A stretch of DNA of 64,000 bases from a virus: UHGV virus genome UHGV-0125682; one strand, written 5' to 3'. Below the pieces are notes generated by a model. The model did not search any database. It saw only the letters and a list, made by a program, of their open reading frames with translations, and had not been told where the DNA came from. This document shows, piece by piece, positions 1-58,045 of this stretch. Numbering within the stretch: the stretch's first letter is position 1; every line of letters starts with the position of its first letter. Position numbers and translations under genes: made by a program.

Positions 1-58
1 AGCGTTTAGTGACCAGCTGCGACATGTAAAACATAATCTTGCCATTGACGGAAAAACA

Positions 59-1063
59 GTGCTGGATAATGGCGCTGAAGTTAATTATATCACGTCCGGC
101 AGTGACAATTTCGTTACGATAGTAGCACCTGAAGGTAAATTCAGTATTGATGCCAGTGCTGTCAAAGGAGGCAGTTTGGCAGATGCTGCAACCAAATTAC
201 TTAAAGCCTACCGAGAGCATAACGCAGATAAATATAAAGTTGATGTGTTACCAGGCCAGCAGGAAGACCCCGAACCACCACAGACAGACCCCGAGACGAA
301 CCCAGTATCACAACCAGAGAGCCAGGATGTAGGTAAATACCACTATGCACTTCAATCTCGCCCGGCTGGTGTTGGTGCTGTGCCGGATGGAAATAAAGCC
401 GTGCTTGATCGTCCTGACCAGGCTGATCAGTATTACGAATATGCTCGTCACGGTATCATTACGTATGACCGTAAACTGACAGATGAAGAAGTCAGCCAGT
501 ACGAGTTGCTCTATCTTCCTGATGAAGATGAGCTGAAAGATTTTGCAGGCCAATTGGTTGTGTCCAGCATGTCGAAACATATTGATGGCTATGTAGACCT
601 GTTTGGCAGTGACCTGAAAACATTCAAGGCGCAAGTGAAAATTCTTTTCCGCAAAGCGTTTCCAAACGTGGCGTATCCACTTGGTGATGGGGAGAACCTT
701 TTCATTATGGACGTGTATAACGCCCTTCAAAATCATTCAAGCGAAGTAAAAACAGAGCATGTGGTTGAGCCGGAATCACAACCACAACCAGCACCAGAAC
801 AGGAGCCGGAGCCAGAAGAAGCTGGTGAATCAGCAAGTGAAGCTGATCAGGAGGCAGATAAAGCACTGGAGTACCTGAAATCCGTGCCGGAGCAGTTTAC
901 ATCCCGCGATCTGACGGTCATCAGTGCTGAACTTGATCATGTGCAGGAAGCAGCAAACGCTCTAATCAGCGCAGGTCGATACGACGAGAACGAAGCCACT
1001 GTTGGTGCAGCAGTTGACTACCTGATCAACATTCTGGCTGAAATTCAGCAGGGAGGTGCTTAA
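59..1063 (+). CDS. hypothetical protein, acidic Pro/Glu-rich linkers; may be 5'-truncated (frame open to position 2, GTG at 59)
   Basis: Long ORF, stop overlaps next start (TAATG at 1061..1065). Confidence 0.5.
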   Translation: MLDNGAEVNYITSGSDNFVTIVAPEGKFSIDASAVKGGSLADAATKLLKAYREHNADKYKVDVLPGQQEDPEPPQTDPETNPVSQPESQDVGKYHYALQSRPAGVGAVPDGNKAVLDRPDQADQYYEYARHGIITYDRKLTDEEVSQYELLYLPDEDELKDFAGQLVVSSMSKHIDGYVDLFGSDLKTFKAQVKILFRKAFPNVAYPLGDGENLFIMDVYNALQNHSSEVKTEHVVEPESQPQPAPEQEPEPEEAGESASEADQEADKALEYLKSVPEQFTSRDLTVISAELDHVQEAANALISAGRYDENEATVGAAVDYLINILAEIQQGGA

Positions 1064-1431
1064 TGACCATCTCTGTTTTAGACCGCCTGAAATTAGGTAA
1101 AGAGCTATCAGATCTAATGCAGGCGCAGAAAACGGCGCCAGTATTGCAACGCGTCACCATTGGTAAGCAGATTGTTGATGTGATGCTGAAATTGGGCTTG
1201 GGGACTGCCGCGCAACCGGCAGCGGAACCGCAACAACAGACTGATCCTGTTGTAGATGAAGTTCCTAAGATAGTGACTGACTTCCTGGGCGGTGTGTTCA
1301 CAAAGTCCACACAAATGGAATTTATTGATGCGCTGCGTGGGATCTCAAACTATGTTGGCGAGTTCCTTACGTTGGAACAGGCAAAAGAGCAGACCATAAG
1401 CTGGGTGAAAGCCAACGGTTATGCAGGGTAA
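1063..1431 (+). CDS. hypothetical protein (122 aa)
   Basis: ORF coupled to upstream gene; no recognised motif. Confidence 0.5.
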   Translation: MTISVLDRLKLGKELSDLMQAQKTAPVLQRVTIGKQIVDVMLKLGLGTAAQPAAEPQQQTDPVVDEVPKIVTDFLGGVFTKSTQMEFIDALRGISNYVGEFLTLEQAKEQTISWVKANGYAG

Positions 1432-1524
1432 TCAAAGGGGCTGAAATGCCCCTTTCACTTTCCTGTAAGTCCATAAATCACACACTTTTTACACTTCCTG
1501 CTTTCTATGTAAGGGGAGTGTATT

Positions 1525-4500
1525 TTGAACAAGTCAGTTACTTCCGCGCTATCCGAAGCAGCAGACATTAACAGTGTTATTGCGCTGGTTTCTTCATTAG
1601 AGAGGCGAGAAACACGCCAGGGGCGCAGTAGTTACGTAGTCACCAGTAAAGGGGCAGAGGTAAAGACGGCTTTTAAGGTCGTTGATGCCAGCAGTCTGAT
1701 CATTTCGAACAACCTTGACGGTACGATTAATCCGGCCTTCCCGGAAGAACTCCAGCCACGTGACCGTACACGGCTATCAAGCAAACTCCAGGTTAACCGT
1801 ATTGCCTCCAATTTACGCCCGGCACAATTAACGGATTCCGGCATGAGCAGCCACGGAGCGCCGATAGTTGGTCCGGACAACGTTGTTGAATCCGGCAACG
1901 GAAGGAGCATGGGTATCTGGCGTGCCTATGAGCAAGGGCAGGCGGATGAATATCGCCAGTACCTGATCGATCATGCAAAAGAGTTTGGTCTGAATCCTGA
2001 CGACATTTCACAAATGTCTATGCCCGTATTGGTGCGAGAAAGACTCACAGATGTAGACCGCGCACAATTTGCCCGCGATTCAAACATCAGCGATCTGCAA
2101 GAGATGGCTGCAAGTGAAAAAGCGTATGCGGATGCGCAATTTCTCACTGAGAGCGTCATGGCGCTATTTAATCCTTCAGATGATGGAAATCTACTGGCGC
2201 GGTCCAATGATGCGTTTATTCGTGCGTTTTTGCGCGAAATAGGTGATACGGCGACGGCAGGTTTGCTTACTGCCGATGGGCGTCCAACGAAACAACTTAT
2301 CGACCGCATCCAGAATGCAATTTTTGCCAAAGCGTACAAGGATGAAAGGCTTGTTCGGCTGGTGGCGGAAGAGCCAGATCCGGAAATGCGTAACATTCTT
2401 ACCGCATTAAATACGGCAGCCAGCGATTTTGCGCAAATGCAGTCGCTTTCAGGTGATGTTCACCATGACACGGTAACCGGACTGGTAGACGGTATAGAGC
2501 AATTGAATGGTCTGGATAAACAGGCTATTGCCGCGCTACAGGAAGCAATTAACCTTGTTCGTGAAGCAAAAGATAACGGTCAGGCAGTAGAAGAGGTGAT
2601 CGCACAGCGTGGATTGTTTGGAGATAGCACTCCGGAAGCAGAAGCGCTTGCTCTGTTTATTGTTGCCAACAACCGAAGCGCTAAGCGAATGGGGGCAGCT
2701 TTCAAGAAACTGGCGCAAAAAATTAACGATGAACTTATTCACCAGCAACAAGCGTTAGGCGATATGTTCGGCGGCGGAGATGTCGATCTGCGTAGCATTT
2801 TATCTGCCGTTTCTGATGAAATTGAGGCTGAGTATGGCGAAGGTAAAGGGCTTAATTTCGCCATGTTTGAATCGGTTTCAGGAGAGGTCGAACCATACAT
2901 TTCAAAGCTAATTGCTGATGCGACCAGCGTGGAGGACTTGATCCGAATCGTGAAGGTGTCAGAAAAAATTAAGGAGTCCGCAAAAAAAATAAAGCGCAAT
3001 GTATTTTTGGAACTTGGTTTTTATATTCGCAATGTCACCGTTAATGAGATTAAGGAGTGGGCTAAACGTTATGGATACAGCGACGCTGTGTTAACAACGA
3101 TGTTATTGTCTTATCAACGCAGCAATTTTTATGCTAACGCACTGCGTGACGCGATTGAAAAAGGAGATGAAGCTCCTTCGCTCGCAGATGAAAGAAATAT
3201 TGATTGTGATATTGAAACGTTTTGCAACATATCAGAAGAAGGCGTGCCCGCTGAACAATTTATACGTGTTTTACATAATGCAGCAAAACATATTCCTGAT
3301 GACTTTAGTATTGATGAATTGCGCAATGGTTGTCTTGTTTGGTTAGGTAACTATTTAAAATCTCCAGCGTCTATTGCAGAGAAAACAGCTTTAAGATTTA
3401 GAAAGGAAATGAATAAAGCTGGAAGCGCAGAAGAGATGGTGTGCATAATCCAAAATACTTTGAAGTTATTCAAAAAGAGCTTGCATAATATCGACGATAT
3501 TATGGCGGCTGGTAGGAAAATAACAGCCAGTGTCGGAGTTAGCTCTGAACTAACGGCAGAGGAGATCGCTGATGCGTATATTGAGACACTTGTCAGGCTT
3601 AAGGAGATAGTGGAATTAGCAGAGCATTCCTCATATTACGGAATCAAGGAGCGTGTTGACTTTACTATAGAACAAATCAATAAAGTTAGGTCAAATAAGG
3701 AAAAACTCACTGACTACCTTGCTGATGTTTTGCACCAGAATGATCATGGGATTGGATATGATCTGAAAAAAATGCTTGTTTTTAATCTGGACATACCGGA
3801 AGACTTGCAAGCAGAACTATATGAAATAGCTTCATTAACACGTGGACAAAAAGCCTATCCTAATGCGCTTGAAAATGTAGTACATAAAAAAGTCAGAGCC
3901 GCATTTGACATGATTCTTGAATCGTCAAATGTGTCACATGACCAGTCTAAGGAATGGAGTCGTGGGATTGCTATTTCTGATGAAGCAGAGCAGTTAAGTG
4001 GTCACGATAATGAAACTTTCTCCCGTAAAGCATACAGTATTCGCGAGACGATTGAAAAAGCCTATATTATTTCAGGAGGGACTTTATCTACATTAAAAAA
4101 TATTAACCACAAGAACAATGTTCGTGCTTTTGCAAGTCGAAATGGGAATATAACAATTGATGCTAATAGTGATCACGAGCGTGTATTATGGCATGAAATA
4201 GGTCACCATATAGAACATTCAAATCCCCATCTATTGGAGAGGGCCAAAGCCTTCATTAAATCAAAAACTAACGGTAAAGTTTCTTATCATAATATTGGTA
4301 GCCGTGGCAGTGCTGAGTATTTGGTGCGAACCGACCTAAGTCATGGATATATGTCTAAAATTTATATGGAAAATACGGTAAGTTCTGTCAGCGGCAGATT
4401 TATATCAAAGCCACCTGCATTAAGCAATTGCAGGGCGACTGAGATTTTTTCTATGGCCTTGCAGATGTATGCCGATCCGGAGCAGGCGACTAACTCTGTA

Positions 4501-4566
4501 TTAAACAATGACGGCGTGCTGGAATTTTTCTTGGGATGTATGAAGGAGTTGCAAAATGAAGTATAG
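1525..4566 (+). CDS. large polyvalent virion-type protein: ParB-like N-terminal motifs, HExxH metallopeptidase-like motif near C-terminus (P1 DdrB-sized)
   Basis: 1013-aa ORF; N-terminal NPAFPEELQPRDRTRL and GNGRSMGIWRA resemble ParB/Srx nuclease-domain motifs; WHEIGHH at about aa 885; C-terminal half markedly more AT-rich. Confidence 0.65.
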   Translation: MNKSVTSALSEAADINSVIALVSSLERRETRQGRSSYVVTSKGAEVKTAFKVVDASSLIISNNLDGTINPAFPEELQPRDRTRLSSKLQVNRIASNLRPAQLTDSGMSSHGAPIVGPDNVVESGNGRSMGIWRAYEQGQADEYRQYLIDHAKEFGLNPDDISQMSMPVLVRERLTDVDRAQFARDSNISDLQEMAASEKAYADAQFLTESVMALFNPSDDGNLLARSNDAFIRAFLREIGDTATAGLLTADGRPTKQLIDRIQNAIFAKAYKDERLVRLVAEEPDPEMRNILTALNTAASDFAQMQSLSGDVHHDTVTGLVDGIEQLNGLDKQAIAALQEAINLVREAKDNGQAVEEVIAQRGLFGDSTPEAEALALFIVANNRSAKRMGAAFKKLAQKINDELIHQQQALGDMFGGGDVDLRSILSAVSDEIEAEYGEGKGLNFAMFESVSGEVEPYISKLIADATSVEDLIRIVKVSEKIKESAKKIKRNVFLELGFYIRNVTVNEIKEWAKRYGYSDAVLTTMLLSYQRSNFYANALRDAIEKGDEAPSLADERNIDCDIETFCNISEEGVPAEQFIRVLHNAAKHIPDDFSIDELRNGCLVWLGNYLKSPASIAEKTALRFRKEMNKAGSAEEMVCIIQNTLKLFKKSLHNIDDIMAAGRKITASVGVSSELTAEEIADAYIETLVRLKEIVELAEHSSYYGIKERVDFTIEQINKVRSNKEKLTDYLADVLHQNDHGIGYDLKKMLVFNLDIPEDLQAELYEIASLTRGQKAYPNALENVVHKKVRAAFDMILESSNVSHDQSKEWSRGIAISDEAEQLSGHDNETFSRKAYSIRETIEKAYIISGGTLSTLKNINHKNNVRAFASRNGNITIDANSDHERVLWHEIGHHIEHSNPHLLERAKAFIKSKTNGKVSYHNIGSRGSAEYLVRTDLSHGYMSKIYMENTVSSVSGRFISKPPALSNCRATEIFSMALQMYADPEQATNSVLNNDGVLEFFLGCMKELQNEV

Positions 4567-4849
4567 CATTGTGAGTCCCGCTGGGATTAGAGGGATTGTT
4601 GAATGCTCTGATGACGGCACATTGCGTATATTTGAAGGCGATATTTCGGAAGAAAATATTGCGCAAGATTTACGCTTTATCAACACAAATTCCGCAATGG
4701 GGATCGTGAATACCATTCATGCCGATGGGGTGTTTGTTCTGCGGAGCCTGGAAACTGTTGGCTGGGAGGTTGAGTGGCCAGAGGTGGAAGGAGATCCTGA
4801 CGACGAAGACGATACTGGCGAATCATATCAAGACATTGATGTGAATTGA
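4556..4849 (+). CDS. small highly acidic protein (97 aa)
   Basis: ORF overlapping stop of the 1013-aa gene; C-terminus EVEGDPDDEDDTGESYQDIDVN; followed by intrinsic terminator. Confidence 0.5.
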   Translation: MKYSIVSPAGIRGIVECSDDGTLRIFEGDISEENIAQDLRFINTNSAMGIVNTIHADGVFVLRSLETVGWEVEWPEVEGDPDDEDDTGESYQDIDVN

Positions 4850-4862
4850 TATGATTGATAAT

Positions 4863-4885
4863 CCCGCCGTCAGGCGGGTTTTTTT
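4863..4885. terminator. intrinsic terminator between convergent genes
   Basis: cccgccgtcaggcggg hairpin plus T7 run. Confidence 0.7.
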
Positions 4886-5147
4886 AGCGTGGTGTAAGAA
4901 TAAATTCAGGATGCTCTCCAGCAAGCAATAACAGGTACTCAAATTCACCAGCCATAAGGCGTCTCGGTTTATTTCTATCTTCTTTGAATTGCCAAGCCCG
5001 GAGTTGATACCCCATTTTGTGGGCTAACTCCGTTTGCGTTAGCCCCATTCGCTGGCGGATTTCAATTATAGTTTCCGGGGTGTTTGGTGGGAGTTGTTTC
5101 ACAATATGCCCTTTGCCAATGCTGTGATTCGCAACGAAGTATATCAT
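4884..5147 (-). CDS. XRE-family HTH protein (antitoxin-like)
   Basis: MGLTQTELAHKMG helix-turn-helix signature; downstream partner of 5160..5462. Confidence 0.55.
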   Translation of the reverse strand: MIYFVANHSIGKGHIVKQLPPNTPETIIEIRQRMGLTQTELAHKMGYQLRAWQFKEDRNKPRRLMAGEFEYLLLLAGEHPEFILTPR

Positions 5148-5159
5148 CGTTGAATCGAT

Positions 5160-5462
5160 TCACAGAGCTGCGCCGAATAGACCGCAGCATGGCATCCCTT
5201 CATCACAGTACCTGGCCCATTCTTTTTGGCATTCTTCTGTTTGCGCGTATTGGCTTAACGCGTCATCCAGCATATCCCAGGCCTTATAGGAATCCTCTGC
5301 AACGCTAAACAAAGTCCTGCCTTCCCGGCTTAGAATTTGCAGATTGTAAATGTTTTCATTGCTCAGACATGCGCGGCTGATATGCATGTAAACCGACCAT
5401 GCAGGAACTCGATTTTTGATAGCAAGTTGGTGTAATTTGGAATTAATTAAAGAGCTTTTCAT
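5160..5462 (-). CDS. hypothetical protein, upstream partner of the HTH gene (start reassigned to MKSSLIN with GGAGA RBS)
   Basis: ORF with good RBS; toxin-then-HTH-antitoxin gene order. Confidence 0.45.
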   Translation of the reverse strand: MKSSLINSKLHQLAIKNRVPAWSVYMHISRACLSNENIYNLQILSREGRTLFSVAEDSYKAWDMLDDALSQYAQTEECQKEWARYCDEGMPCCGLFGAAL

Positions 5463-5645
5463 GGGATTTCTCCGCAGCAAAGTGGTCAACTTTTTCAATC
5501 TTAATGCGCACAATGTGCATATTCAAGTTTTATTCTTCACTTTGTTACGAGAGGGGCCAGCCAATATTTCTAGTTGAAAAGATCCATCATCAAAAATCAC
5601 ATACTGATTATGCTGCCGCAAACTGAAAACATTTCGCGGTGACTC

Positions 5646-7328
5646 ATGGCAACGAAAGACAAAAACAAAGGCTTTCTGTCGGCATTGAAGAAAGCCTTCA
5701 ACAGTGGCGATGTCACGCCTGCCGATCCGGTCGTTTTTACGAGCGGTCATAGTGTCGTTGCGCGTTCTGGTCTGTCCGCTTTACGTCCGGGGATACTGGG
5801 TGGCAATAGCGATGGCATGACAAGCGCGGCAGATACAGTATCAATTTCGGCAGAACTGCCCGGCGACCGCCTGCAAAAGTACAACATCCTGGAAACGATG
5901 GCTAAAAGCCCGACTATCTCGACGGCTTTAAATATTCACATTGCACATGCGCTTGCGCCTTCAAAAAAAACCGGACAAGCATTCATCCTTTCGCCAAAGG
6001 ATGGTTCCGATGCCGAGGCAGTAAGTAGATGTGAAGAGTTAACCGCTGATTTGGGGACGATGATTAATGACGGACTTCCTTCATGGGCCATGATTATGGC
6101 GATCTTTGGGGTGTCTTATGTCCGACCTTATGCTGAACAGGGCAGGGGGATAACAGGCATTGAGTCCAGTTATTACACTCTGCCACACTTCGTCCAGGAG
6201 TTTTATCGTGGTAGCCAGCTGGTAGGTTTCAGTGGTGATTACATTCTGGATACGCATAGTTTGCGCAGAGTAATAACCGAACCGTGGAATCTGGTTTCCA
6301 TGAAAAATCCCTATTGGACGCCACAGCATAAAGTTATTCCGGTTAGCTACGGCACAAAAGGGTACTCACTGTTAAGTGATCAGGCTGATAAGCCGTTAAT
6401 GGAGACGCAGAATTACGGAACTTCATTCCTGGAATACAGCTATGAACCTTACCTTAATTTATGTGCTTCGCTCGCCGCGCTGAAATCAACGCGAAATAAT
6501 GCAGCCAAAATTGACCGCCTGATTGCTCTTACGACGAACACACTGGACCCGGTTAATGCGGCGAACTATACGCGTGGCGTCAGCCAGGCATTGAAGCGTC
6601 ATAGTGACCTGGTGGCGCAAAGGTCGATTAATGCCAACGCTATTCCGACTGTGCTTAACCATCTGATACCTGTTATGGGAGACGGGAAGAACGGCATCAC
6701 CATTGATACGCAATCCATACCCGCAGATATCAGTGGTATCGAAGACGTTATGTTTCACCTCCGGCAGCTTGCTGCAAGCCTCGGCATTGACGCAACAATG
6801 CTTGGCTGGGCTGATCAGATGAGCGGAGGGCTTGGAGAAGGCGGCTGGCAGCAAACTGCTATCCAGGCTGCATTGCGTGCGAACTGGATCAGACAGGCCG
6901 CCCAGCGAACTATTTATCGGCTTCTGGACATTCACCTCGCTTATAAATACGGCAAGGTTTACACCGAAACAAACCGCCCTTATGACGTGCAATTCAACTC
7001 AATGAACACAGCTATCCAGGAAGAGGAAAACCGAGAACTGGATGCACGCGCCAACTTTGTTGCTGTCATCTCCCAAATTATGGACCAGATCCAGAACAAC
7101 CCGAAACTGGCTGGTAGTGACGCGTTTATGCGTTATCTGTTCACCGAGCAGTTGCACATCGACGATGACACTCTCAACACCATGATCAAAGAGTTTAAGG
7201 CGAATGAATCAGAGCAAAACAGCGAGCATGGTATGTACGAATCCGCGCCGTTGTCGTCCGGTGACGATCCGGAAAACTGGACGCCAGAACAGTTAATAAA
7301 CTTTGCAAAATTTGTGATGAGCAATTAA
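5646..7328 (+). CDS. putative head morphogenesis protein, portal-like by size and position
   Basis: 560-aa ORF followed by coiled-coil protein; assignment by synteny only. Confidence 0.35.
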   Translation: MATKDKNKGFLSALKKAFNSGDVTPADPVVFTSGHSVVARSGLSALRPGILGGNSDGMTSAADTVSISAELPGDRLQKYNILETMAKSPTISTALNIHIAHALAPSKKTGQAFILSPKDGSDAEAVSRCEELTADLGTMINDGLPSWAMIMAIFGVSYVRPYAEQGRGITGIESSYYTLPHFVQEFYRGSQLVGFSGDYILDTHSLRRVITEPWNLVSMKNPYWTPQHKVIPVSYGTKGYSLLSDQADKPLMETQNYGTSFLEYSYEPYLNLCASLAALKSTRNNAAKIDRLIALTTNTLDPVNAANYTRGVSQALKRHSDLVAQRSINANAIPTVLNHLIPVMGDGKNGITIDTQSIPADISGIEDVMFHLRQLAASLGIDATMLGWADQMSGGLGEGGWQQTAIQAALRANWIRQAAQRTIYRLLDIHLAYKYGKVYTETNRPYDVQFNSMNTAIQEEENRELDARANFVAVISQIMDQIQNNPKLAGSDAFMRYLFTEQLHIDDDTLNTMIKEFKANESEQNSEHGMYESAPLSSGDDPENWTPEQLINFAKFVMSN

Positions 7329-7341
7329 CCGGAGGGAAATA

Positions 7342-8340
7342 ATGCAATCACTGAATACTGTTACGGATCGCTTCTCCCTGGTAGAGAAAATCCGCAAACA
7401 CACACCGCAGAACAACCGAAATTACGTCATTCAGTCGGTACGAGACACATTCAACTCGCCAGAAACAAAAGAGCGTATCGCGCTGGGTGAGATGTATGGT
7501 TATTACGGTCATGGTCGCCGGGCGATGCACTATAACAAAACGAAAAGCCTGAACTTGCCGGAAGTCTCTGTTGTGATGGTAGATGGGAAGCCTGTTGTAT
7601 TGGAGAACGTGCCGTCAAACAGGACTATCGACATTTCGATTGACGACAACGGCATTGTTACTCATACGCAGGAAATACTGGATACAGACACCGGGCGTAT
7701 TGTTCAGGGCATGATTAATTCTGGTGCTGGTGGTTGGTCGTGGGCTACATCTGGTCCAGATTCATCGGTATCCCTGGTAAAGTCTTTCCACGGCTTTGAT
7801 TACGTAACTGTGCCTAACTATATCAGCCTCGACAAGAAAAGCCTGATGCTTGAATCAGCAGAAGAGCGCGATGCGGCTATTCATGCAGCACTTATCGAAC
7901 AAGGTTTTACCGATAACGCTGCTACGGATCTGGTTCACCACTTTTCAGCAATGAAAAATCAGCAAGCCATGCTCGAATCTGCACATCGTGAAGCCCTGGA
8001 ATCAGAATTGATGCTCCTTGAAGTGGAAAACATACAGCTTCGAGATAAGCTGCGCGCTCAAACAGCGATGATGGAAAGCCAGGGGGAAAATGCAAAGCAA
8101 TGCCGCCGGATTTTGCGTGACGCTATCCAGGAAATGCCTGTTTTTATCAGCGCAGAACAGCGCCGGGCGCTCTGCCGTATGCAGTCTGAAGATGATGCCC
8201 GCATAGTGGCTGCGATGCTTGAATCTCTTGGGGCAAATGCTACTTATGGCTTACCGGTATCAGGCAAGAAAGAACCAGAGTTATCACCGAAGGAGAACAA
8301 AAACACCACCCCGTTACTCTTCGTTTCCAGAAGGGGGTAA
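7342..8340 (+). CDS. hypothetical protein with C-terminal coiled coil (possible head protease/scaffold)
   Basis: GGAGGG RBS; coiled-coil-rich C-terminal half. Confidence 0.35.
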   Translation: MQSLNTVTDRFSLVEKIRKHTPQNNRNYVIQSVRDTFNSPETKERIALGEMYGYYGHGRRAMHYNKTKSLNLPEVSVVMVDGKPVVLENVPSNRTIDISIDDNGIVTHTQEILDTDTGRIVQGMINSGAGGWSWATSGPDSSVSLVKSFHGFDYVTVPNYISLDKKSLMLESAEERDAAIHAALIEQGFTDNAATDLVHHFSAMKNQQAMLESAHREALESELMLLEVENIQLRDKLRAQTAMMESQGENAKQCRRILRDAIQEMPVFISAEQRRALCRMQSEDDARIVAAMLESLGANATYGLPVSGKKEPELSPKENKNTTPLLFVSRRG

Positions 8341-22982: not shown

Positions 22983-23059
22983 GATGGTGTAGCTCAGTAG
23001 GATAGAGCAGCAGCCTTCTAAGCTGTCGGTCGGTGGTTCGAATCCACCCACCATCGCCA
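22983..23059 (+). tRNA. tRNA-Arg (anticodon UCU)
   Basis: Manual cloverleaf fold: 7-bp acceptor GATGGTG/CACCATC, TTCGAAT T-loop, anticodon loop CTTCTAA, encoded CCA. Confidence 0.85.
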
Positions 23060-23061
23060 AT

Positions 23062-23137
23062 GCCGGTTTAGCTCAGTTGGTAGAGCGCCTGCCTTGTAAG
23101 CAGGATGTCAGCGGTTCGAGTCCGTTAACCGGCACCA
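23062..23137 (+). tRNA. tRNA-Thr (anticodon UGU)
   Basis: Manual fold: acceptor GCCGGTT/AACCGGC, anticodon loop CTTGTAA, T-arm AGCGG-TTCGAGT-CCGTT, CCA. Confidence 0.85.
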
Positions 23138-23146
23138 ACACAACAG

Positions 23147-23220
23147 GTAAGGGTATTTTGCGACGTCGGAGATCGCCGTGCTTGGCAGAGGGTTCGAATC
23201 CCTACGAAGTACCCTTACCG
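23147..23220 (+). ncRNA. tRNA-like element or tRNA pseudogene
   Basis: 10-bp terminal stem GGTAAGGGTA/TACCCTTACC enclosing AGGG-TTCGAAT-CCCT T-arm-like hairpin, but spacing is non-canonical. Confidence 0.3.
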
Positions 23221-23775
23221 TTGTGATGAAGTGCAGCTCTTTGAAGCAACCAGAAGATAAGCATCTGGCTTCACAACATAAACCGCAGGAACGACCAATA
23301 AACGGTAGTCCGTATGGAGAACACCCCGTTGAGGAAGAGGCCTGGCCGGAACCGTAACCGGCACTACAACGTTGAGAACACTGGCGTAACGGGGTCATAT
23401 CCCAATCTATGAATAAATGTTGCGTTGCAGCGTGACAACCAGTGTTCTCAACATTGTGGTGAATGCGCAGGCTGATGCGCGAAAGACATTGCAGCTATTG
23501 CGGAAAAGAGCTGTTCGGCGGGGCAATTAAACGCCCGTGAGAGTCTGAAATAACCGCAAGCCGGAGATCAGCACCGGTCGCCACAATAACGGGAGAGTAG
23601 GGAGCATGGTGCTCAAGCAGTCTTGAAAACCGTCCCATTGCGCACGCGGAACAGTTAAAACAATCCTCCTTAGTGGTTAAGTCAAACATCCCGGCGTTAA
23701 TTGTTAACTGGTTAACGTCACCTGGAGGCACCAGGCACCGCAGCTTTTTTATTCGTTAAATAATGGAGTGAGAGG

Positions 23776-24012
23776 ATGCAGAACAATCCGAACAAATGTC
23801 GAACGCTATGGGTGCGGTTATATATTTATGTCGTCCTCTGTTTGATTGTGTCACTGGTTCTGTATGTTTGGCTTTTGCCAAATATGATCTCATCTGACAG
23901 CACAATACTTGTATTGTTGGGAGTCCTTCTCGCGCTCATTTACCCGGCTTTTGCAGTAGTCTTTTTTCGTGAAAAAACCAGGAAATTGATTAATGAAAAA
24001 AACGTTGATTAG
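23776..24012 (+). CDS. small membrane protein (78 aa)
   Basis: GAGAGG RBS; two hydrophobic helices. Confidence 0.5.
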   Translation: MQNNPNKCRTLWVRLYIYVVLCLIVSLVLYVWLLPNMISSDSTILVLLGVLLALIYPAFAVVFFREKTRKLINEKNVD

Positions 24013-24820
24013 TGCAGCGATTATTTTTGGTTCTTTATGTCTGACCGGATGCGACCGGGTAGAACCAGGCAATGTAGGGATCAAAGTAAATAAGCTGGGG
24101 GATGATAAAGGTGTCGGCGAAGTAGTTGGCGTTGGTCGCTACTGGACAGGCTGGAACACAGAAGTTTATATCTTCCCGACCTTTAAGCAAATGAAGACCT
24201 ATGATGATCCGTTCAGCTTCCAAATGAGCGACGGGACAACAATTGGTTACCACATTGGTGTAGCTTACAAGGTTGATCCGGCAAAAGTCACAACTGTATT
24301 TCAGACCTACCGCAAAGGCGTGGATGACATTACCGACACCGACCTGCGCCAGAAGATTGCCGACGCACTTAACCGACTGGCCAGCAAAATGACCACCGAC
24401 AAATTTATCGACGGTGGCAAGTCTGAACTACTGGATGCAGCTCTTAAAGACATCCAGGAAGAAATGACGCCCATCGGTATTCAGGTAATGAGCCTCTCAT
24501 ATGTGGGCAAGCCGGAGTACCCGCCAACCGTTATCGACAGCATTAATGCCAAAGTCACGGCGAACCAGAAAACTCTGCAACGCGAGCAGGAAGTCAAGCA
24601 ACGCGAAGCAGAAGCCAACATGCTGCGCGCAGAAGCTGCCGGACAGGCCGATGCCATTCGCACAAAAGCCCAGGCTGAAGCTGATGCCATTCGTTTACGC
24701 GGTGAGGCTCTGCGCCAGAACCCCGGCGTTATGGAGTTGGAAGCGATCAACAAATGGAACGGAACGCGACCGCAGTATATGACCAGTAATACCGCTGTTC
24801 CGTTTGTTCCGGTGAAATAA
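23993..24820 (+). CDS. plp: SPFH/band-7 domain lipoprotein (Plp-like)
   Basis: Signal peptide with lipobox LCLTGC; coiled-coil Ala/Glu-rich C-terminus typical of SPFH proteins. Confidence 0.65.
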   Translation: MKKTLISAAIIFGSLCLTGCDRVEPGNVGIKVNKLGDDKGVGEVVGVGRYWTGWNTEVYIFPTFKQMKTYDDPFSFQMSDGTTIGYHIGVAYKVDPAKVTTVFQTYRKGVDDITDTDLRQKIADALNRLASKMTTDKFIDGGKSELLDAALKDIQEEMTPIGIQVMSLSYVGKPEYPPTVIDSINAKVTANQKTLQREQEVKQREAEANMLRAEAAGQADAIRTKAQAEADAIRLRGEALRQNPGVMELEAINKWNGTRPQYMTSNTAVPFVPVK

Positions 24821-24833
24821 CCAAATAGAGAAC

Positions 24834-24965
24834 ATGATGGAATTTTGGACGTTTGCCGACAAGAACCCTTGGTGGACATTTTTATTTCTGCTGGTGGTTG
24901 CATATGGGGTCGAGCAAGCAGCAAAAGCCTTACGCGGTCCTGGCAAAAAGCGTAAGCGGAATTAA
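24834..24965 (+). CDS. small membrane protein (43 aa), not in ORF track
   Basis: ATG ORF with one hydrophobic helix and basic tail. Confidence 0.35.
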   Translation: MMEFWTFADKNPWWTFLFLLVVAYGVEQAAKALRGPGKKRKRN

Positions 24966-24974
24966 CAGTAATCT

Positions 24975-25050
24975 GGCCCTTTAGCTCAGTGGTTAGAGCT
25001 GGCGACTCATAATCGCACGGTCACCGGTTCAAGTCCGGTAGGGGCCACCA
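24975..25050 (+). tRNA. tRNA-Met or tRNA-Ile2 (anticodon CAU)
   Basis: Manual fold: acceptor GGCCCTT/AGGGGCC, anticodon loop CTCATAA, T-arm ACCGG-TTCAAGT-CCGGT, CCA. Confidence 0.8.
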
Positions 25051-25503
25051 TATTTGGTTGTAACACGGCGTATGGCACATGCGTCGTTAGCGGTCTGGTG
25101 ACGTTAAAGGGGTTACCTTTTCCCCAAGCTCAGGCAACAAACCAGGTAGCCGGAATGTGCAAGCCCCGTACATAGCGTCGGACCGAGGACTCACCACCCT
25201 GGCGATTCGGTGTGACAGCCGGAAGAGTACGGCGCACAACAGGAAAAGGCGTTTAATTAACGCGAGCGCCGTTTCCGTTGTGGTAATTGCGGCTATGCGC
25301 TCGTGACGAAGCCATTTTCATTCACTACGTTCTGATAAGTGACGTCGCCAGGAGTGGCTAACCTGGCAGGTGGAGGCACCACCGCCACAACTCCTTTCAA
25401 TTCATCATATAGCCGCTCAGGCTGTACCCCTTAATTAATACGAAGTTTCGACATCTCTATCGGTTTAACCGAGGGATGGTCGCGCGTGTAAAAAGGAGAC
25501 GTT

Positions 25504-54456: not shown

Positions 54457-55639
54457 TTTCCTGAAAAACCAGGACGGGCGCTATATCACTGACGGTCTGT
54501 CCTCTAAGGACTTCACGCGTTTATTCGACCTTATCAGGAAAGAACAAACCCGTAAGCGCCGACAAGCTCACCGGACGCTGACGCCAGGCAGACTTAGGAA
54601 CAAATCCGCCGAAGATATTCTCAAGTTAGGGAAGAAAAAAGGCGGCACGTTCTTTACGCGAGACGATCTGAAAGGCTTCGAAAAGCTACGGAGTAAAACG
54701 CGCGAAAAATATGACAGCAAGACGGCTGGCATCACATACGCCCAGCTGGTGGCATCCAGCCAGGCTATCGATATTAAGCGTGCAAATAACGCCGTGGATG
54801 ACGGATCTGGTATCAAAAGAGCTACACCCGTATCTCTTCGCCACAATGTGATTAATATCCGCGTAGAAGCATCGGATATATCCGTCCACCAGCACCATAT
54901 CGTCCGGATACGCTTTGAAGAATGGGATCAGATGGTTGATGATATCGCAGAAGACGATAAATCAGCTCTCAAAATCACTAAATCACTGTGCGCCGGGCGA
55001 GTGTCTTTCGATTGTGACTGTGGTCGTCATCAATACTGGTATCGTTACATCGCCACTGCGGGTAACTTTGCCCTGGCACCGCCAAAAGAATACGCCTATC
55101 CAAAAGTTCGCAACCCGAAGCTGCAAGGCGTCGCCTGTAAACACGTGATCCACTCAATGACGCGGTTACAGTCCGCCAGTTGGCAAATGAGTATTGCTCG
55201 TGCGCTACAAAAGGCTGCAACGCAAATTGCATTTGGTGACGATCGCCGCCGTACAACCAAACACTTCTCAAAAGAAGACGAGAAGGAGTTTAATCGCAAT
55301 CGTAGCAGTAAAACGAACGTTGACGCTGCCAAGCGAGAATGGAGGCTCTATCAGAAGCGCCAGGCCGCTTTAAGCACAAAACTGGCAAAGGACAACGGCA
55401 AGATTGACAAGCTACGTGACCAACTGACCAAGGCCAGAAAGTTGTCAGACGCACAGAAAAAACGGGCGGCAGCAAAAGAAGCGGCGTTGCAACGTGAGAA
55501 ACAGAAAAACAAGGAGCTTCAGCAACGCCTGGCCGATCAGTTCGCACTGAAGAAGCAGGCGTTCATTGATGCGCTTGTCATGGCTGGAACACCACCAGCA
55601 CAAGCTGAAAAAATGTTCATGGAGTACATAAAAAATTAA
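54449..55639 (+). CDS. hypothetical protein with CxC...CxH (SWIM-like) zinc-finger motif and basic coiled-coil tail
   Basis: FDCDCGRHQYW...GVACKHV. Confidence 0.5.
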   Translation: MPDFLKNQDGRYITDGLSSKDFTRLFDLIRKEQTRKRRQAHRTLTPGRLRNKSAEDILKLGKKKGGTFFTRDDLKGFEKLRSKTREKYDSKTAGITYAQLVASSQAIDIKRANNAVDDGSGIKRATPVSLRHNVINIRVEASDISVHQHHIVRIRFEEWDQMVDDIAEDDKSALKITKSLCAGRVSFDCDCGRHQYWYRYIATAGNFALAPPKEYAYPKVRNPKLQGVACKHVIHSMTRLQSASWQMSIARALQKAATQIAFGDDRRRTTKHFSKEDEKEFNRNRSSKTNVDAAKREWRLYQKRQAALSTKLAKDNGKIDKLRDQLTKARKLSDAQKKRAAAKEAALQREKQKNKELQQRLADQFALKKQAFIDALVMAGTPPAQAEKMFMEYIKN

Positions 55640-55641
55640 CA

Positions 55642-55666
55642 AAGGTGGGTTTATCCCACCTTTTTA
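55642..55666. terminator. bidirectional intrinsic terminator
   Basis: aggtgggtttatcccacct hairpin flanked by A and T runs. Confidence 0.65.
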
Positions 55667-56382
55667 TTAGCATCGCATTTAATTTTTTCAAGTGAATCAG
55701 AAAGCTTTGAGAGAAGCTCCTCAAGTGTTTCCCTGTCATTTGTATCACCCGAACGAAAAGATGAGTTTTTCACGGCGGTAAAAAATTCATAAAAATCATC
55801 CACCGAATTTAAGCTCTCACCTTTCTCTCTATATAATTTAATAATATGAATGATATCGCTATCCACACATTCAATCTGTTTCCTAATTTCTTTAAGCCGT
55901 TTTTCTAATGATTCAAGTTCTTCTTCTTGTTCAATATACTTTTTAACGTCTCTCTGCTTCTTAATGGCTTTCTTAATATCACTGTTAATTGTCCTTATTT
56001 GTTCTTTTTTATTTGCAATTTCATCTATTTTTCTTAATTTAGCATATAATGTGCTTGTCACCAAAGAAATTAACAGGGTTAACAGTGGCGCTAATATTGA
56101 TGCCACAACACCATAAATAAAAGGCAAAACAAAATGAGCTACGAACGATGGTAAAAAAAGATTCCCCAATAATGGGATCTTTTCCCCGACAAACACTATA
56201 GATAATGTATACATAACATCATCTTTTGACTTCAGTAATATAAATATGTCTCGCCAATTAGAAATTAAAAACGAAATAAAAATGTAGGCAAAAACCTTAT
56301 TAAACAACTTATCTTTTACAGCATCTTCTAACAGATTTTGGGTAGAGGAGTTTTCCTTTTCTATTGATGAATCAGCGCTCAT
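55651..56382 (-). CDS. AT-rich membrane-anchored coiled-coil protein
   Basis: About 32 percent GC by eye versus roughly 50 percent for the phage; two transmembrane helices then Lys/Glu-rich coiled coil. Confidence 0.55.
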   Translation of the reverse strand: MSADSSIEKENSSTQNLLEDAVKDKLFNKVFAYIFISFLISNWRDIFILLKSKDDVMYTLSIVFVGEKIPLLGNLFLPSFVAHFVLPFIYGVVASILAPLLTLLISLVTSTLYAKLRKIDEIANKKEQIRTINSDIKKAIKKQRDVKKYIEQEEELESLEKRLKEIRKQIECVDSDIIHIIKLYREKGESLNSVDDFYEFFTAVKNSSFRSGDTNDRETLEELLSKLSDSLEKIKCDANKKVG

Positions 56383-56442
56383 ATAATTACCAAATATTTA
56401 AACATTGATTTTATGTAAAAGCGGTCATCCAGACCGCAAAAC

Positions 56443-56802
56443 TTAAACACCAACCAGACTTTCCAGTGGAATACCAAACTGGGCATGTAAACGACGAATC
56501 ATAGGTAACGTCAAATTTCGTGTCCCATTAAGCACTTCGTAAACACGGTTTGACTTACCAATTGCCGGTTCCAGATCCTTCACGGTCAGCCCTTGCTGTT
56601 CCATACGGAATTTAATGGCCTCAATAGGTGATGGTGGCTCAATTGGGTAATGTTTTTTCTCGTACTCCTCAATGAGAAGACACATGACCTCAAAGAAATC
56701 ACCTTCCGGGGTGTTCATTTCCGGTTCGTTATCGAACATCGGTTCGACCGCACGCAGTGCGGCCTCATAATCTTGTTCTGTACGGATAGGTTTAATGTTC
56801 AT
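56443..56802 (-). CDS. higA: HigA-like antitoxin (HTH)
   Basis: C-terminal HTH (GLTVKDLEPAIGKSNRVYEVLNG); downstream of HigB-like toxin. Confidence 0.75.
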   Translation of the reverse strand: MNIKPIRTEQDYEAALRAVEPMFDNEPEMNTPEGDFFEVMCLLIEEYEKKHYPIEPPSPIEAIKFRMEQQGLTVKDLEPAIGKSNRVYEVLNGTRNLTLPMIRRLHAQFGIPLESLVGV

Positions 56803-56805
56803 GAT

Positions 56806-57108
56806 TTACTCCAGTTCTATTGTATCCGCTTCAATGGCATCGTATTCCTTATGTGTTCCAATAAACTTAACGAACATCCATCCTCGCTGATAAGCAATTG
56901 CGACAATTAACCTGTAATCATTTCCCTTAATATTGAACACCACGCGCCTGTTTTTAAGGATGCTGGCTGTCCGGTACTGTTCTTTGATCTCAGCCGGATT
57001 TTTCCAGTCAGCCTTTGTTGCTTCATCAACCCATGCCTTTAATGGCTGTTCTGCATCGGGATTCTTCGCCCAGAAATCCCTTAGTGTTTTTACCGAAATT
57101 ATTTTCAT
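56806..57108 (-). CDS. higB: HigB-like toxin (RelE/ParE superfamily)
   Basis: FNIKGNDYRLIVAIAY...IGTHKEYD matches HigB family; start reassigned to MKIIS with AAGGAA RBS. Confidence 0.75.
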   Translation of the reverse strand: MKIISVKTLRDFWAKNPDAEQPLKAWVDEATKADWKNPAEIKEQYRTASILKNRRVVFNIKGNDYRLIVAIAYQRGWMFVKFIGTHKEYDAIEADTIELE

Positions 57109-57253
57109 CACAGATTCCTTCTCTCTGAAAGCAGAGTAGTCCCAATATGGGACAATGTAAAGCACTTTAGTCCCATGCTGGGATATGAATTGAAATCACA
57201 ATCTCCAGACAATGCACCCTCGATACCTGATAAATCGACCTTTGAGGATGCTT

Positions 57254-58045
57254 ATGGGCCGTTTTGACGAATGGTTTTCTGACGATGCAAACCTGGCAAG
57301 TAAGGAGTCAGAACATGACAGCACGCAGAGAGAAACGCCAGCGCCGATTGAAGCGAATGCAGGAGGCGCGCCGGAACATGGCAATACCAGTTCGGATTCA
57401 TTCAGCATTCTGGAAGAGCAACCCGCCGCCAAAGCTGATAGCCATGATAATTTTGCTGATAGCAACGGTGGCCTTACTCCAGATGCTGGCGAATCAGATA
57501 TAGCCATACTTCCACCTTCCCTGGCTGGCAGAGAACCAACTCCACAGCTAAAAGCACGCTATAACGGGCATAAAGCCTTTAACGACCAAATCCGCGCAGA
57601 CTGGATGCTGATTATTGAATCCAGCCCAGACGCGTTTCAGGCTCTCTTATATCGACCAGATGTTGGCACATATGGGGTAGTCAGCGACGAAACAGGAGAA
57701 GAGTCATTCACTGAACTGGATAACAACCAGCGCGAACTGACTTACCAGGAACCTGAAATCGTTTATGTGCTGGATAACCCGGACGGGCGTGACTCTTTCC
57801 ATGCGATTGACGCAGACGGTGAGCAGGATGGCTTAACCGATGATGTTCTGATTCTGCGTATTGCAGCAAATAACGTCCCCGTCGGCTCAATTCTTGAATG
57901 GAATGAAGAGATGGTAAACGGCGTAGCCCGCCGCTGGTGGTACGTGCACCGTATTTTTAGCTACGGCACACAGCATGTTGGTTCGCTTTACTACTGCATA
58001 CCAGCCAGGAATTTTGATACGACTCAAAACGGAGTGATCGAATGA
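57254..58045 (+). CDS. hypothetical acidic protein (possible tail/baseplate module)
   Basis: Start reassigned to MGRFDEWF with GAGGA RBS. Confidence 0.45.
   Translation: MGRFDEWFSDDANLASKESEHDSTQRETPAPIEANAGGAPEHGNTSSDSFSILEEQPAAKADSHDNFADSNGGLTPDAGESDIAILPPSLAGREPTPQLKARYNGHKAFNDQIRADWMLIIESSPDAFQALLYRPDVGTYGVVSDETGEESFTELDNNQRELTYQEPEIVYVLDNPDGRDSFHAIDADGEQDGLTDDVLILRIAANNVPVGSILEWNEEMVNGVARRWWYVHRIFSYGTQHVGSLYYCIPARNFDTTQNGVIE

Follow-up and report, generated by a model that had tools for sequence, protein, structure and literature searches.

DdrB of a D6-type phage-plasmid carries a putative capsid-type processing motif at the boundary of its two modules

The ddrB gene and its relatives

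The 64,000-nt stretch examined here (UHGV virus genome UHGV-0125682; hereafter the window, whose coordinates are used throughout) contains at 1525-4566 on the plus strand a 1013-aa open reading frame (ORF) with a TTG start, which had originally been predicted from the DNA letters to encode a large internal protein of the Dar antirestriction system. The ORF is real, RefSeq giving the same coordinates to WP_032323249.1 (named there 'hypothetical protein') on the Escherichia coli plasmid pB2C_96, with which the stretch shares 100% nucleotide identity. The assignment to the Dar system and to a Dar operon also held. By BLASTP the protein aligned end to end with DdrB of phage P1 (YP_006491.1, 995 aa; 44% identity, 1036 columns, E = 0), and gp116 of Cronobacter phage JK004 also aligned over its whole length (46% identity). 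Both halves of the protein matched phrog_2299 (E = 1e-248 and 2e-198), and the gene order is that of P1 and D6, with ddrB placed after hdf-darA-ddrA and before an hxr homologue that overlaps its stop codon. The gene is almost certainly the ddrB of a D6-type, P1-family phage-plasmid (pB2C_96-like) of E. coli. It is a divergent allele of a known protein, ddrB being present in every P1-like phage-plasmid.

The original prediction had also held that the domain combination of this protein, ParB-like at the N-terminus and with an HExxH motif towards the C-terminus, could be matched to no described Dar protein. This was wrong, since P1 DdrB is collinear with it and the architecture of P1 DdrB, a DdrB-ParB domain followed by a C-terminal zincin metallopeptidase (MPTase), was published by Iyer, Burroughs, Anand, de Souza and Aravind in 2017 (PMC5512222). 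The very name of the Pfam family PF18763 derives from DdrB, which likewise leaves the claim of an unmatched architecture unsupported.

The seam within ddrB and the low-GC cassette

The gene is divided by a sharp seam at codon 449/450 (nt 2871/2872). A drop in GC content from about nt 2900 had been noticed in the original prediction, and a windowed GC check found it at all three codon positions: GC is 0.494 in the N-half (1525-2871) against 0.391 in the C-half (2872-4563), the values for the first, second and third codon positions (GC1/2/3) being 0.617/0.405/0.459 and 0.475/0.348/0.349, respectively. Across the window, 1.7-kb segments have a mean GC of 0.478 with a standard deviation of 0.026, which places the C-half more than three standard deviations low. 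The maximum-likelihood change point in GC lies at nt 2962 (log-likelihood ratio 18.4). The homology break is sharper than this and falls at nt 2870-2873, where the partial matches in complete E. coli genomes all end; by megablast, D6 and most of the PLSDB relatives match just nt 1-1325/1349 of the gene. At the seam itself, the nucleotide identity to the Klebsiella gene drops inside a single 90-nt window, from about 80% to some 55%.

The low GC of the C-half is peculiar to the present allele, with no such drop in the Klebsiella variicola orthologue or in JK004 and a mild one in P1. The step in identity, on the other hand, is a family-wide property. Against the K. variicola protein, which is the closest full-length relative, identity is 83% and 96% in the two parts of the N-module but 60% in the peptidase and as low as 38% in the helical middle, and among 25 full-length DdrBs many pairs are at least 85% identical in the N-half yet at most 45% identical in the middle. 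The C-module evolves faster than the N-module throughout the DdrB family. Since the two-module architecture is shared by P1, JK004, the Klebsiella element and the present element, it is ancestral to the P1/D6 group, and the short forms of DdrB described below are most simply derived from it. The suggestion that the C-terminal region is a fused module of different origin was therefore overstated: the seam and junction are real, and this lineage differs in its C-module allele and in the compositionally foreign cassette that contains it, but the architecture is an old one.

Homology to D6-type sequence returns near nt 5594, the portal ATG lying 52 nt further on. This, together with the break at 2871, marks 2872-5593 as one cassette, comprising the DdrB C-half, an hxr-like gene translationally coupled to it, a strong terminator and two small divergent genes, one of the XRE family and one hypothetical. 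The D6-type N-module was found in 19 of 5426 complete E. coli genomes; six of these carry the cassette (at 99-100% identity) and nine the short form, and the 1013-codon frame was translated intact from two further plasmids. The N-module nucleotides are 95-98% identical to those of the D6-type plasmids. In D6, pLD93-1-90kb and pHX138.33gt_1, ddrB encodes only 453-454 aa, with the stop 4-5 codons past the break, and is followed by a DUF4145 gene and one ORF or directly by the portal gene. The hxr gene is missing from the short-form loci, whereas each of the five long-form loci examined has it, with an overlap of 11-14 nt with the ddrB stop. We consider it very likely that the module boundary and the cassette are as described here, the cassette sitting in the present lineage as a compositionally foreign unit that is present or absent as a whole.

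The junction motif

The seam lies within the sequence GLNFAMFE↓SVSGEVEP (the arrow marking the predicted cut, E449↓S450), the central hexapeptide of which, AMFESV, is identical to that in the element's own major capsid protein (MCP), GKAMFE↓SVAQSM. This capsid-protein site aligns with KAMLE↓SVAAEM of P1 gp23, where the maturation cut at E120↓S121 was established by Edman sequencing and attributed to the prohead protease Pro (PMC9024508). Written strictly as [AGS][ML][FL]E[SA][VA], the motif has five occurrences in the six reading frames of the whole 96-kb plasmid, located in DdrB, MCP, Pro and, twice, one 244-aa protein, while shuffled sequences gave a mean of 0.24 and none of 2000 reached five. 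In the P1, JK004 and Klebsiella loci, the six-frame matches to the strict motif are limited to DdrB, at the same position, and Pro. The site is conserved across 115 DdrB relatives, with M or L at substrate position P3 in 113, F at P2 in 111, E or D at P1 in 114 and S, A or G at P1' in 114; beyond P3' the sequence is hypervariable. The natural short DdrBs terminate at the motif, their 4-5 extra codons being counted from the conserved E.

A relaxed form of the motif occurs four times in Pro, each time in its C-terminal half, in P1 as in the present element, which suggests that Pro may process itself at capsid-type sites. In the pro gene of the window these are (M/L)(L/M)E↓S motifs at aa 169, 210, 243 and 292. 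In DarA the relaxed motif predicts cuts at E68↓A69 in P1 and E65↓S66 in the present element. The former prediction matches the P1 cryo-EM structure (2026), in which DarA residues 1-69 are invisible, as well as the biochemistry cited there, according to which Pro removes about 9 kDa from the N-terminus. The sites read TDLLE↓AISS (aa 66-69) in P1 DarA and DEAMFE↓SITT (aa 63-66) in DarA of pB2C_96 (L004 1614-3539), the latter lying just before nt 1 of the window. No relaxed motif occurs in Hdf, which is reported to be unprocessed, or in DarB, for which a size of 250 kDa has been given. A second relaxed motif in DdrB, MILE↓S at aa 796-800, before the peptidase domain, was dropped as it is not conserved in the relatives inspected. 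The 244-aa protein (phrog_1053; L010 19310-20044, minus strand), encoded beside the tail sheath gene and outside the window, contains both NAMLE↓SA and SAMLE↓AV and may be a further Pro substrate or a scaffold-like protein.

The N-module

Residues 42-173 match PF18763, the 'ddrB-like ParB superfamily domain' (E = 1e-41; score 142.3 bits, cutoff 27.6), and the two motifs that had been picked out as ParB-like, QPRDR and GNGRSMGIWRA, both fall within this match; the GNGR at aa 124-127 is of the GxxR type. The remainder of the N-module (aa 174-449) is 80-96% identical to the full-length relatives and about 66% identical to P1 DdrB at the amino acid level. The placement of the DdrB-ParB family in the ParB superfamily is that of the Pfam authors and of Iyer et al. 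(PMC5512222). When a profile of 27 DdrB N-domain sequences (Neff 2.3) was compared by hhalign with Bacillus subtilis Spo0J and human sulfiredoxin, the probability was below 1% and did not exceed that of shuffled controls. Sequence and profile searches of the PDB with DdrB returned coiled-coil noise, with no ParB and no peptidase. The partition genes of the plasmid are ParM/ParR, leaving no ParB of its own for comparison. An antisense ORF at 1971-2396 (minus strand) resembles P1 'iddB' (64% identity over 98 aa). It was not counted as a gene, because the conserved sense frame alone would give such conservation.

The C-module

The middle region of DdrB (aa 450-779) is hypervariable: relatives that match the N-half at 63-91% identity reach just 17-39% here. 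In the AlphaFold2 (AF2) model of aa 451-1013, which has a mean predicted local distance difference test (pLDDT) score of 92.2, the chain is exclusively helical to about aa 800 and alpha/beta beyond, and the residues directly after E449↓S450 are disordered. A model of the C-terminal domain (aa 780-1013) has a pLDDT of 96.6. In it, strands at domain residues 80-83 and 96-99 precede a helix at 106-120 bearing H111, E112 and H115, which are H890, E891 and H894 of the HEIGHH motif. The motif had been recognised in the original prediction, and its implied zincin-like fold can be accepted from the AF2 models.

Among 62 aligned homologues, E931, Y942, Y947 and E973 are invariant, and conservation is 90% or more at H890, E891, G893, H894, H895 and E897; going by this conservation, the third zinc ligand would be E973 or E931. 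The modelled domain was found to have significant structural similarity to solved zincins. Foldseek returned no significant match for the peptidase domain and Pfam no family at E <= 1, with a few homologues giving weak matches to Zincin_1 or Reprolysin. Since no curated family was matched, we describe the domain as having a zincin-like fold and do not place it in M34 or any other named family. The model thus describes a zincin-like fold with an intact catalytic motif, for which peptidase activity is predicted.

The last ~230 residues form a module that an exhaustive HMMER search found to be common to 124 cluster representatives, and homologous peptidase modules occur elsewhere in fusions with domains such as DarA_N and ADP-ribosyltransferase. 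When the C-half was used as the sole query, a word-indexed protein search gave no match. By full-length search and exhaustive HMMER, its best match was 43% identical, besides three short fragments at 95-100%, in a protein library that was clustered and may therefore conceal a closer relative. One candidate for a stand-alone C-half gene (P0121) was rejected, the gene being cut by a contig end.

Proposed processing of DdrB

In P1, DdrB is one of six Dar (defence against restriction) proteins. It is co-ejected with the DNA and acts with DarB and Ulx in the branch concerned with type I restriction by EcoB and EcoK, and it is non-essential. The order of incorporation of the P1 Dar proteins, with DdrB after Hdf and DarA, and the EcoB/EcoK link have been described (PMC12810830). 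P1 DdrB has been detected in virions by 39 peptides (59.5% coverage) and was listed as a protein that 'aids DarB addition to capsid' (PMC9024508), and it is reported to be proteolytically processed (PMC5512222).

Since the junction of the two modules carries the motif of the capsid site and this motif is conserved in 115 relatives, DdrB is probably a polyprotein. Going by the identity of the motif and its conservation, we lean, with modest confidence, towards cleavage by Pro at E449↓S450, on the seam. In such a scheme, which assumes that the element behaves as P1 does, DdrB would be a late product of the dar operon that enters the prohead by the route dependent on Hdf and DarA. Pro would then cut the 112-kDa protein, giving an acidic ParB-like fragment of 48.9 kDa and a helical-plus-zincin fragment of 63.6 kDa, the latter with the predicted N-terminus SVSGEVEPYISK from S450, for which the P1 equivalent would be SVSGGSYNGVAPY. 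The equivalent cut in P1 DdrB (109 kDa) would fall at E441↓S442 and yield fragments of 47.9 and 60.9 kDa, with SVSGGSYNGVAPYTSLLLHR as the predicted peptide from S442. Both fragments would stay in the head and then leave with the DNA; that both remain in the head is suggested by the peptide coverage of P1 DdrB, which exceeds the share of either half. More speculatively, the N-fragment would be a conserved core, NTP-binding or directed to nucleic acid, and the sole part retained in the short alleles, whereas the C-fragment would be a variable module with an effector or processing role that together with Hxr forms a dispensable accessory.

Taken jointly, the identity of the gene as ddrB, the module boundary with its cassette, and cleavage at the seam make up a reading that we regard as likely. 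A wider proposal is offered more tentatively, namely that cleavage at the seam, a variable C-fragment/Hxr cassette that is exchangeable or dispensable, a short DdrB equivalent to the mature N-fragment, and a (M/L)(F/L)E↓(S/A) rule for the Pro degradome (MCP, DarA, Pro and DdrB) all belong together.

Several points weigh against this reading. Divergence in the N-half and in the middle is correlated across the 25 full-length DdrBs (r = 0.8), and in no pair (0) is the middle more conserved than the N-half, so that much of the identity step at the seam reflects rate heterogeneity and not the swapping of modules. The motif statistics are partly post hoc, the motif having been defined from two of its five matches; for the remaining three, P is about 0.005 against the shuffles. 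The weightiest objection is a processed P1 DdrB of 76 kDa, from older work as relayed by Iyer et al. (PMC5512222), which fits neither of the fragments predicted for P1. Packaging into the capsid and an antirestriction function are carried over by analogy from P1 DdrB at 44% identity and may be expected here on that footing, and the presumed ParB-superfamily membership of the N-domain is taken from the Pfam family and the literature.

Alternatively, following the proposal of Iyer et al., the metallopeptidase of DdrB may itself process the protein, some 700 aa from one end, the MFE↓S sequence being then the structural end of the N-domain and not a Pro site. The reported 76-kDa product and the intact and conserved peptidase motif would fit such autoproteolysis, as would the fusion of the same peptidase module to DarA_N, ADP-ribosyltransferase and other effector domains elsewhere. 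However, the junction hexapeptide is identical to the capsid maturation site, its motif occurs in MCP, DarA and Pro, for which cutting by Pro is reported or predicted, and not in Hdf or DarB, which are reported as unprocessed, and the natural short DdrBs end at it. We therefore consider autoproteolysis in place of Pro cleavage the less likely of the two, although the two are mutually compatible and a zincin step may be additional.

It is less likely still that the seam is due to faster evolution and amino acid usage of the C-half alone, with neither import nor recombination. The C-half is far more divergent in all pairwise comparisons, with the step at the same codon; it is rich in K, I, N and Y, and the correlation noted above is what uneven rates would produce. 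Yet GC at third codon positions also falls, from 0.46 to 0.35, and the low GC continues past ddrB into the other genes of the cassette. Moreover, the Klebsiella orthologue and JK004 lack the GC seam and P1 has it only mildly, and the D6-type plasmids remain 95-98% identical up to nt 2871 and are wholly different DNA thereafter.

A recent fusion of a ParB-like and an unrelated HExxH module into a novel Dar-like polyvalent protein would account for the GC seam and the homology break, both of them real, and for the lack of a Pfam model matching the C-terminal domain. It is nevertheless highly improbable, being refuted by the end-to-end alignments: P1 DdrB, JK004 gp116 and about 25 full-length relatives are collinear with the present protein, HExxH domain included, and the combination is the one already published for DdrB. 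Finally, an artefact of annotation or assembly, or a decaying pseudogene beside a functional 454-aa short form, can be practically dismissed even though the short form is commoner among the D6-type E. coli plasmids (nine against six of the 19) and the PLSDB tables omit the long coding sequence in two plasmids, since the frame is intact in independently assembled complete plasmids with the cassette at 99-100% identity in six, the AF2 models are highly confident, the catalytic motif is conserved, and P1 has the same long form, with the protein detected in its virions.

Comparison with known systems

P1 DdrB shares with the present protein full collinearity, the DdrB-ParB N-domain, the HExxH C-domain, the ddrA-ddrB-hxr gene order and an (M/L)FE↓S junction. 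Identity to it is highest in the N-module (about 61-66%), intermediate in the peptidase (about 41%) and lowest in the helical middle (about 20%). The two differ in the GC of the C-half, which is 0.39 here and about 0.47 in P1, and in the ddrA-ddrB gap, which is 12 nt in P1 but here extends to 93 nt and includes a hairpin. D6 orf25 and the other short DdrBs of D6 type (453-454 aa) have the N-module and the same backbone of holin, lydB, hdf, darA, ddrA, portal and pro, but lack the helical region, the peptidase and hxr, the DUF4145 gene plus one ORF, or nothing, taking the place of the cassette.

Like other polyvalent proteins (PMC5512222), DdrB is a multidomain polypeptide delivered by the virion, its hub being a zincin peptidase. 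It differs in that autoproteolysis by the MPTase was proposed for those proteins, whereas here the boundary carries what appears from its sequence to be a capsid-protease site. The DdrB peptidase comes closest to the M34/PPEP/MtfA-like group of gluzincins but has just 11-13% sequence identity to the Pro-Pro endopeptidases PPEP-2/3 (M34-type), anthrax lethal factor and MtfA, and, unlike them, has a beta-rich insert that separates the HExxH helix from the putative Glu helix.

A parallel to the proposed cleavage is found in T4, whose prohead protease gp21 cuts (L/I)-x-E motifs behind the Glu and strips off capsid-targeting sequences. The T4 internal proteins are likewise antirestriction cargo loaded into the prohead and trimmed after hydrophobic-x-Glu, the sites in the P1 family being of the form (M/L)-(F/L)-E↓. 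The cut in DdrB would differ in parting two large modules, where that in the T4 proteins removes a short targeting peptide. Pro and T4 gp21 have no detectable sequence family in common.

The seam gives a prediction at the level of single residues, E449↓S450 here and E441↓S442 in P1, with Pro rather than the protein's own peptidase as the enzyme. The motif agrees with those facts of P1 head-protein processing that were checked (gp23, DarA, Hdf and DarB) and may serve as a working recognition rule for Pro, which might in turn aid the design of cleavable cargo fusions for P1-based protein delivery. The short and long alleles, which differ at the site, amount to a natural deletion series for the role of the peptidase half and Hxr in antirestriction.

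Gene context and further observations

The features of the locus are collected in Table 1. Holin, lydB and hdf lie directly outside the window on the upstream side, and ddrB is followed downstream by the hxr-like gene, portal, pro, repL and the gene for DarB (2278 aa).

Table 1. Features of the ddrB locus and its neighbourhood, in window coordinates unless a locus is named
Feature	Position	Strand	Remarks
darA, 3' part	1-1063	+	phrog_1926 'released from the phage upon host infection', E = 8.5e-170; begins before the window; position as in D6 and pB2C_96
ddrA (122 aa)	1063-1431	+	phrog_1855 'DdrA-like anti-restriction protein', E = 4.8e-50
8-bp GC-rich hairpin	1434-1455	+	within the 93-nt ddrA-ddrB spacer
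Shine-Dalgarno AAGGGGAG of ddrB	1511-1518	+	read from the sequence; 6 nt before the TTG
ddrB	1525-4566	+	1013 aa; full-length orthologue of P1 DdrB
DdrB-type ParB-superfamily domain	1648-2043 (aa 42-173)	+	PF18763
QPRDR	1753-1767 (aa 77-81)	+	inside the PF18763 match
GNGRSMGIWRA	1894-1926 (aa 124-134)	+	inside the PF18763 match
Conserved second part of N-module	2044-2871 (aa 174-449)	+	sequence conservation
A-M-F-E↓S-V, predicted Pro site E449↓S450	2860-2877 (aa 446-451)	+	on the homology break and compositional seam
Low-GC cassette	2872-5593	.	2.7 kb, GC 0.41; takes the place of the D6-type stretch that runs from the ddrB N-module to the region preceding portal
Hypervariable all-helical middle region of DdrB	2872-3861 (aa 450-779)	+	AF2 model, identity drop
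Zincin-like metallopeptidase (MPTase) domain	3862-4563 (aa 780-1013 as modelled)	+	AF2 model
HEIGHH (H890 E891 H894)	4192-4209 (aa 890-895)	+	predicted active-site helix
hxr-like gene (97 aa)	4556-4849	+	11-nt overlap of its start with the ddrB stop; 41% identical to P1 Hxr; phrog_2292, E = 2e-39
hxr-like gene in other long-form loci	L002 7220-7528; L003 7631-7921; L007 8035-8322; L015 1494-1787
Intrinsic-terminator-like hairpin	4863-4885	+	6 GC pairs, then T7; operon end
Small XRE-family helix-turn-helix gene	4884-5147 (longest ORF); RefSeq 4884-5048	-
Hypothetical gene	5160-5513; RefSeq 5160-5462	-	no family match in Pfam or PHROGs
Portal gene	5646-7328	+	context
pro, head-processing protease	7342-8340	+	proposed to cut DdrB

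The hairpin in the ddrA-ddrB spacer was not called by a simple terminator scan. The RNA fold of 1428-1475 has an energy of -14.8 kcal/mol (z = -2.8), and the hairpin could reduce the expression of ddrB by acting as attenuator, terminator or processing site. P1 Hxr is annotated 'possible repressor, Xre homologue'. In the hxr-like protein of the window no helix-turn-helix was found by Pfam or PHROGs, Pfam giving no match at all, and Hxr may be a partner of the DdrB C-fragment and not a repressor.

The flanks of the six cassette-bearing complete plasmids are patchy in identity. These sister plasmids are about 100% identical over most of the region, with sharply divergent patches: in pTB423 identity is 90-96% in ddrA and the ddrB N-half (window 1251-2500 against L011), and in pMTY1586 it is 74-92% in the portal gene (window 5751-6750 against L012). 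Such patches indicate that mosaicism by homologous recombination is pervasive in the region.

Further along the window, the RefSeq record of the identical plasmid, with coordinates converted, places a cluster of five tRNA genes (Ile, Ser, Thr, Tyr and Asn) at about 22985-24277 and a gene of the Thoeris anti-defence Tad2 family at about 24730-25305. The sole other island in the window with GC as low as that of the DdrB C-half lies near 55.6 kb. This stretch, at about 55600-57300 (GC 0.376-0.41), carries a helix-turn-helix gene, hypothetical genes and toxin-antitoxin pairs of the HigB/HigA type, and is probably another acquired accessory island.

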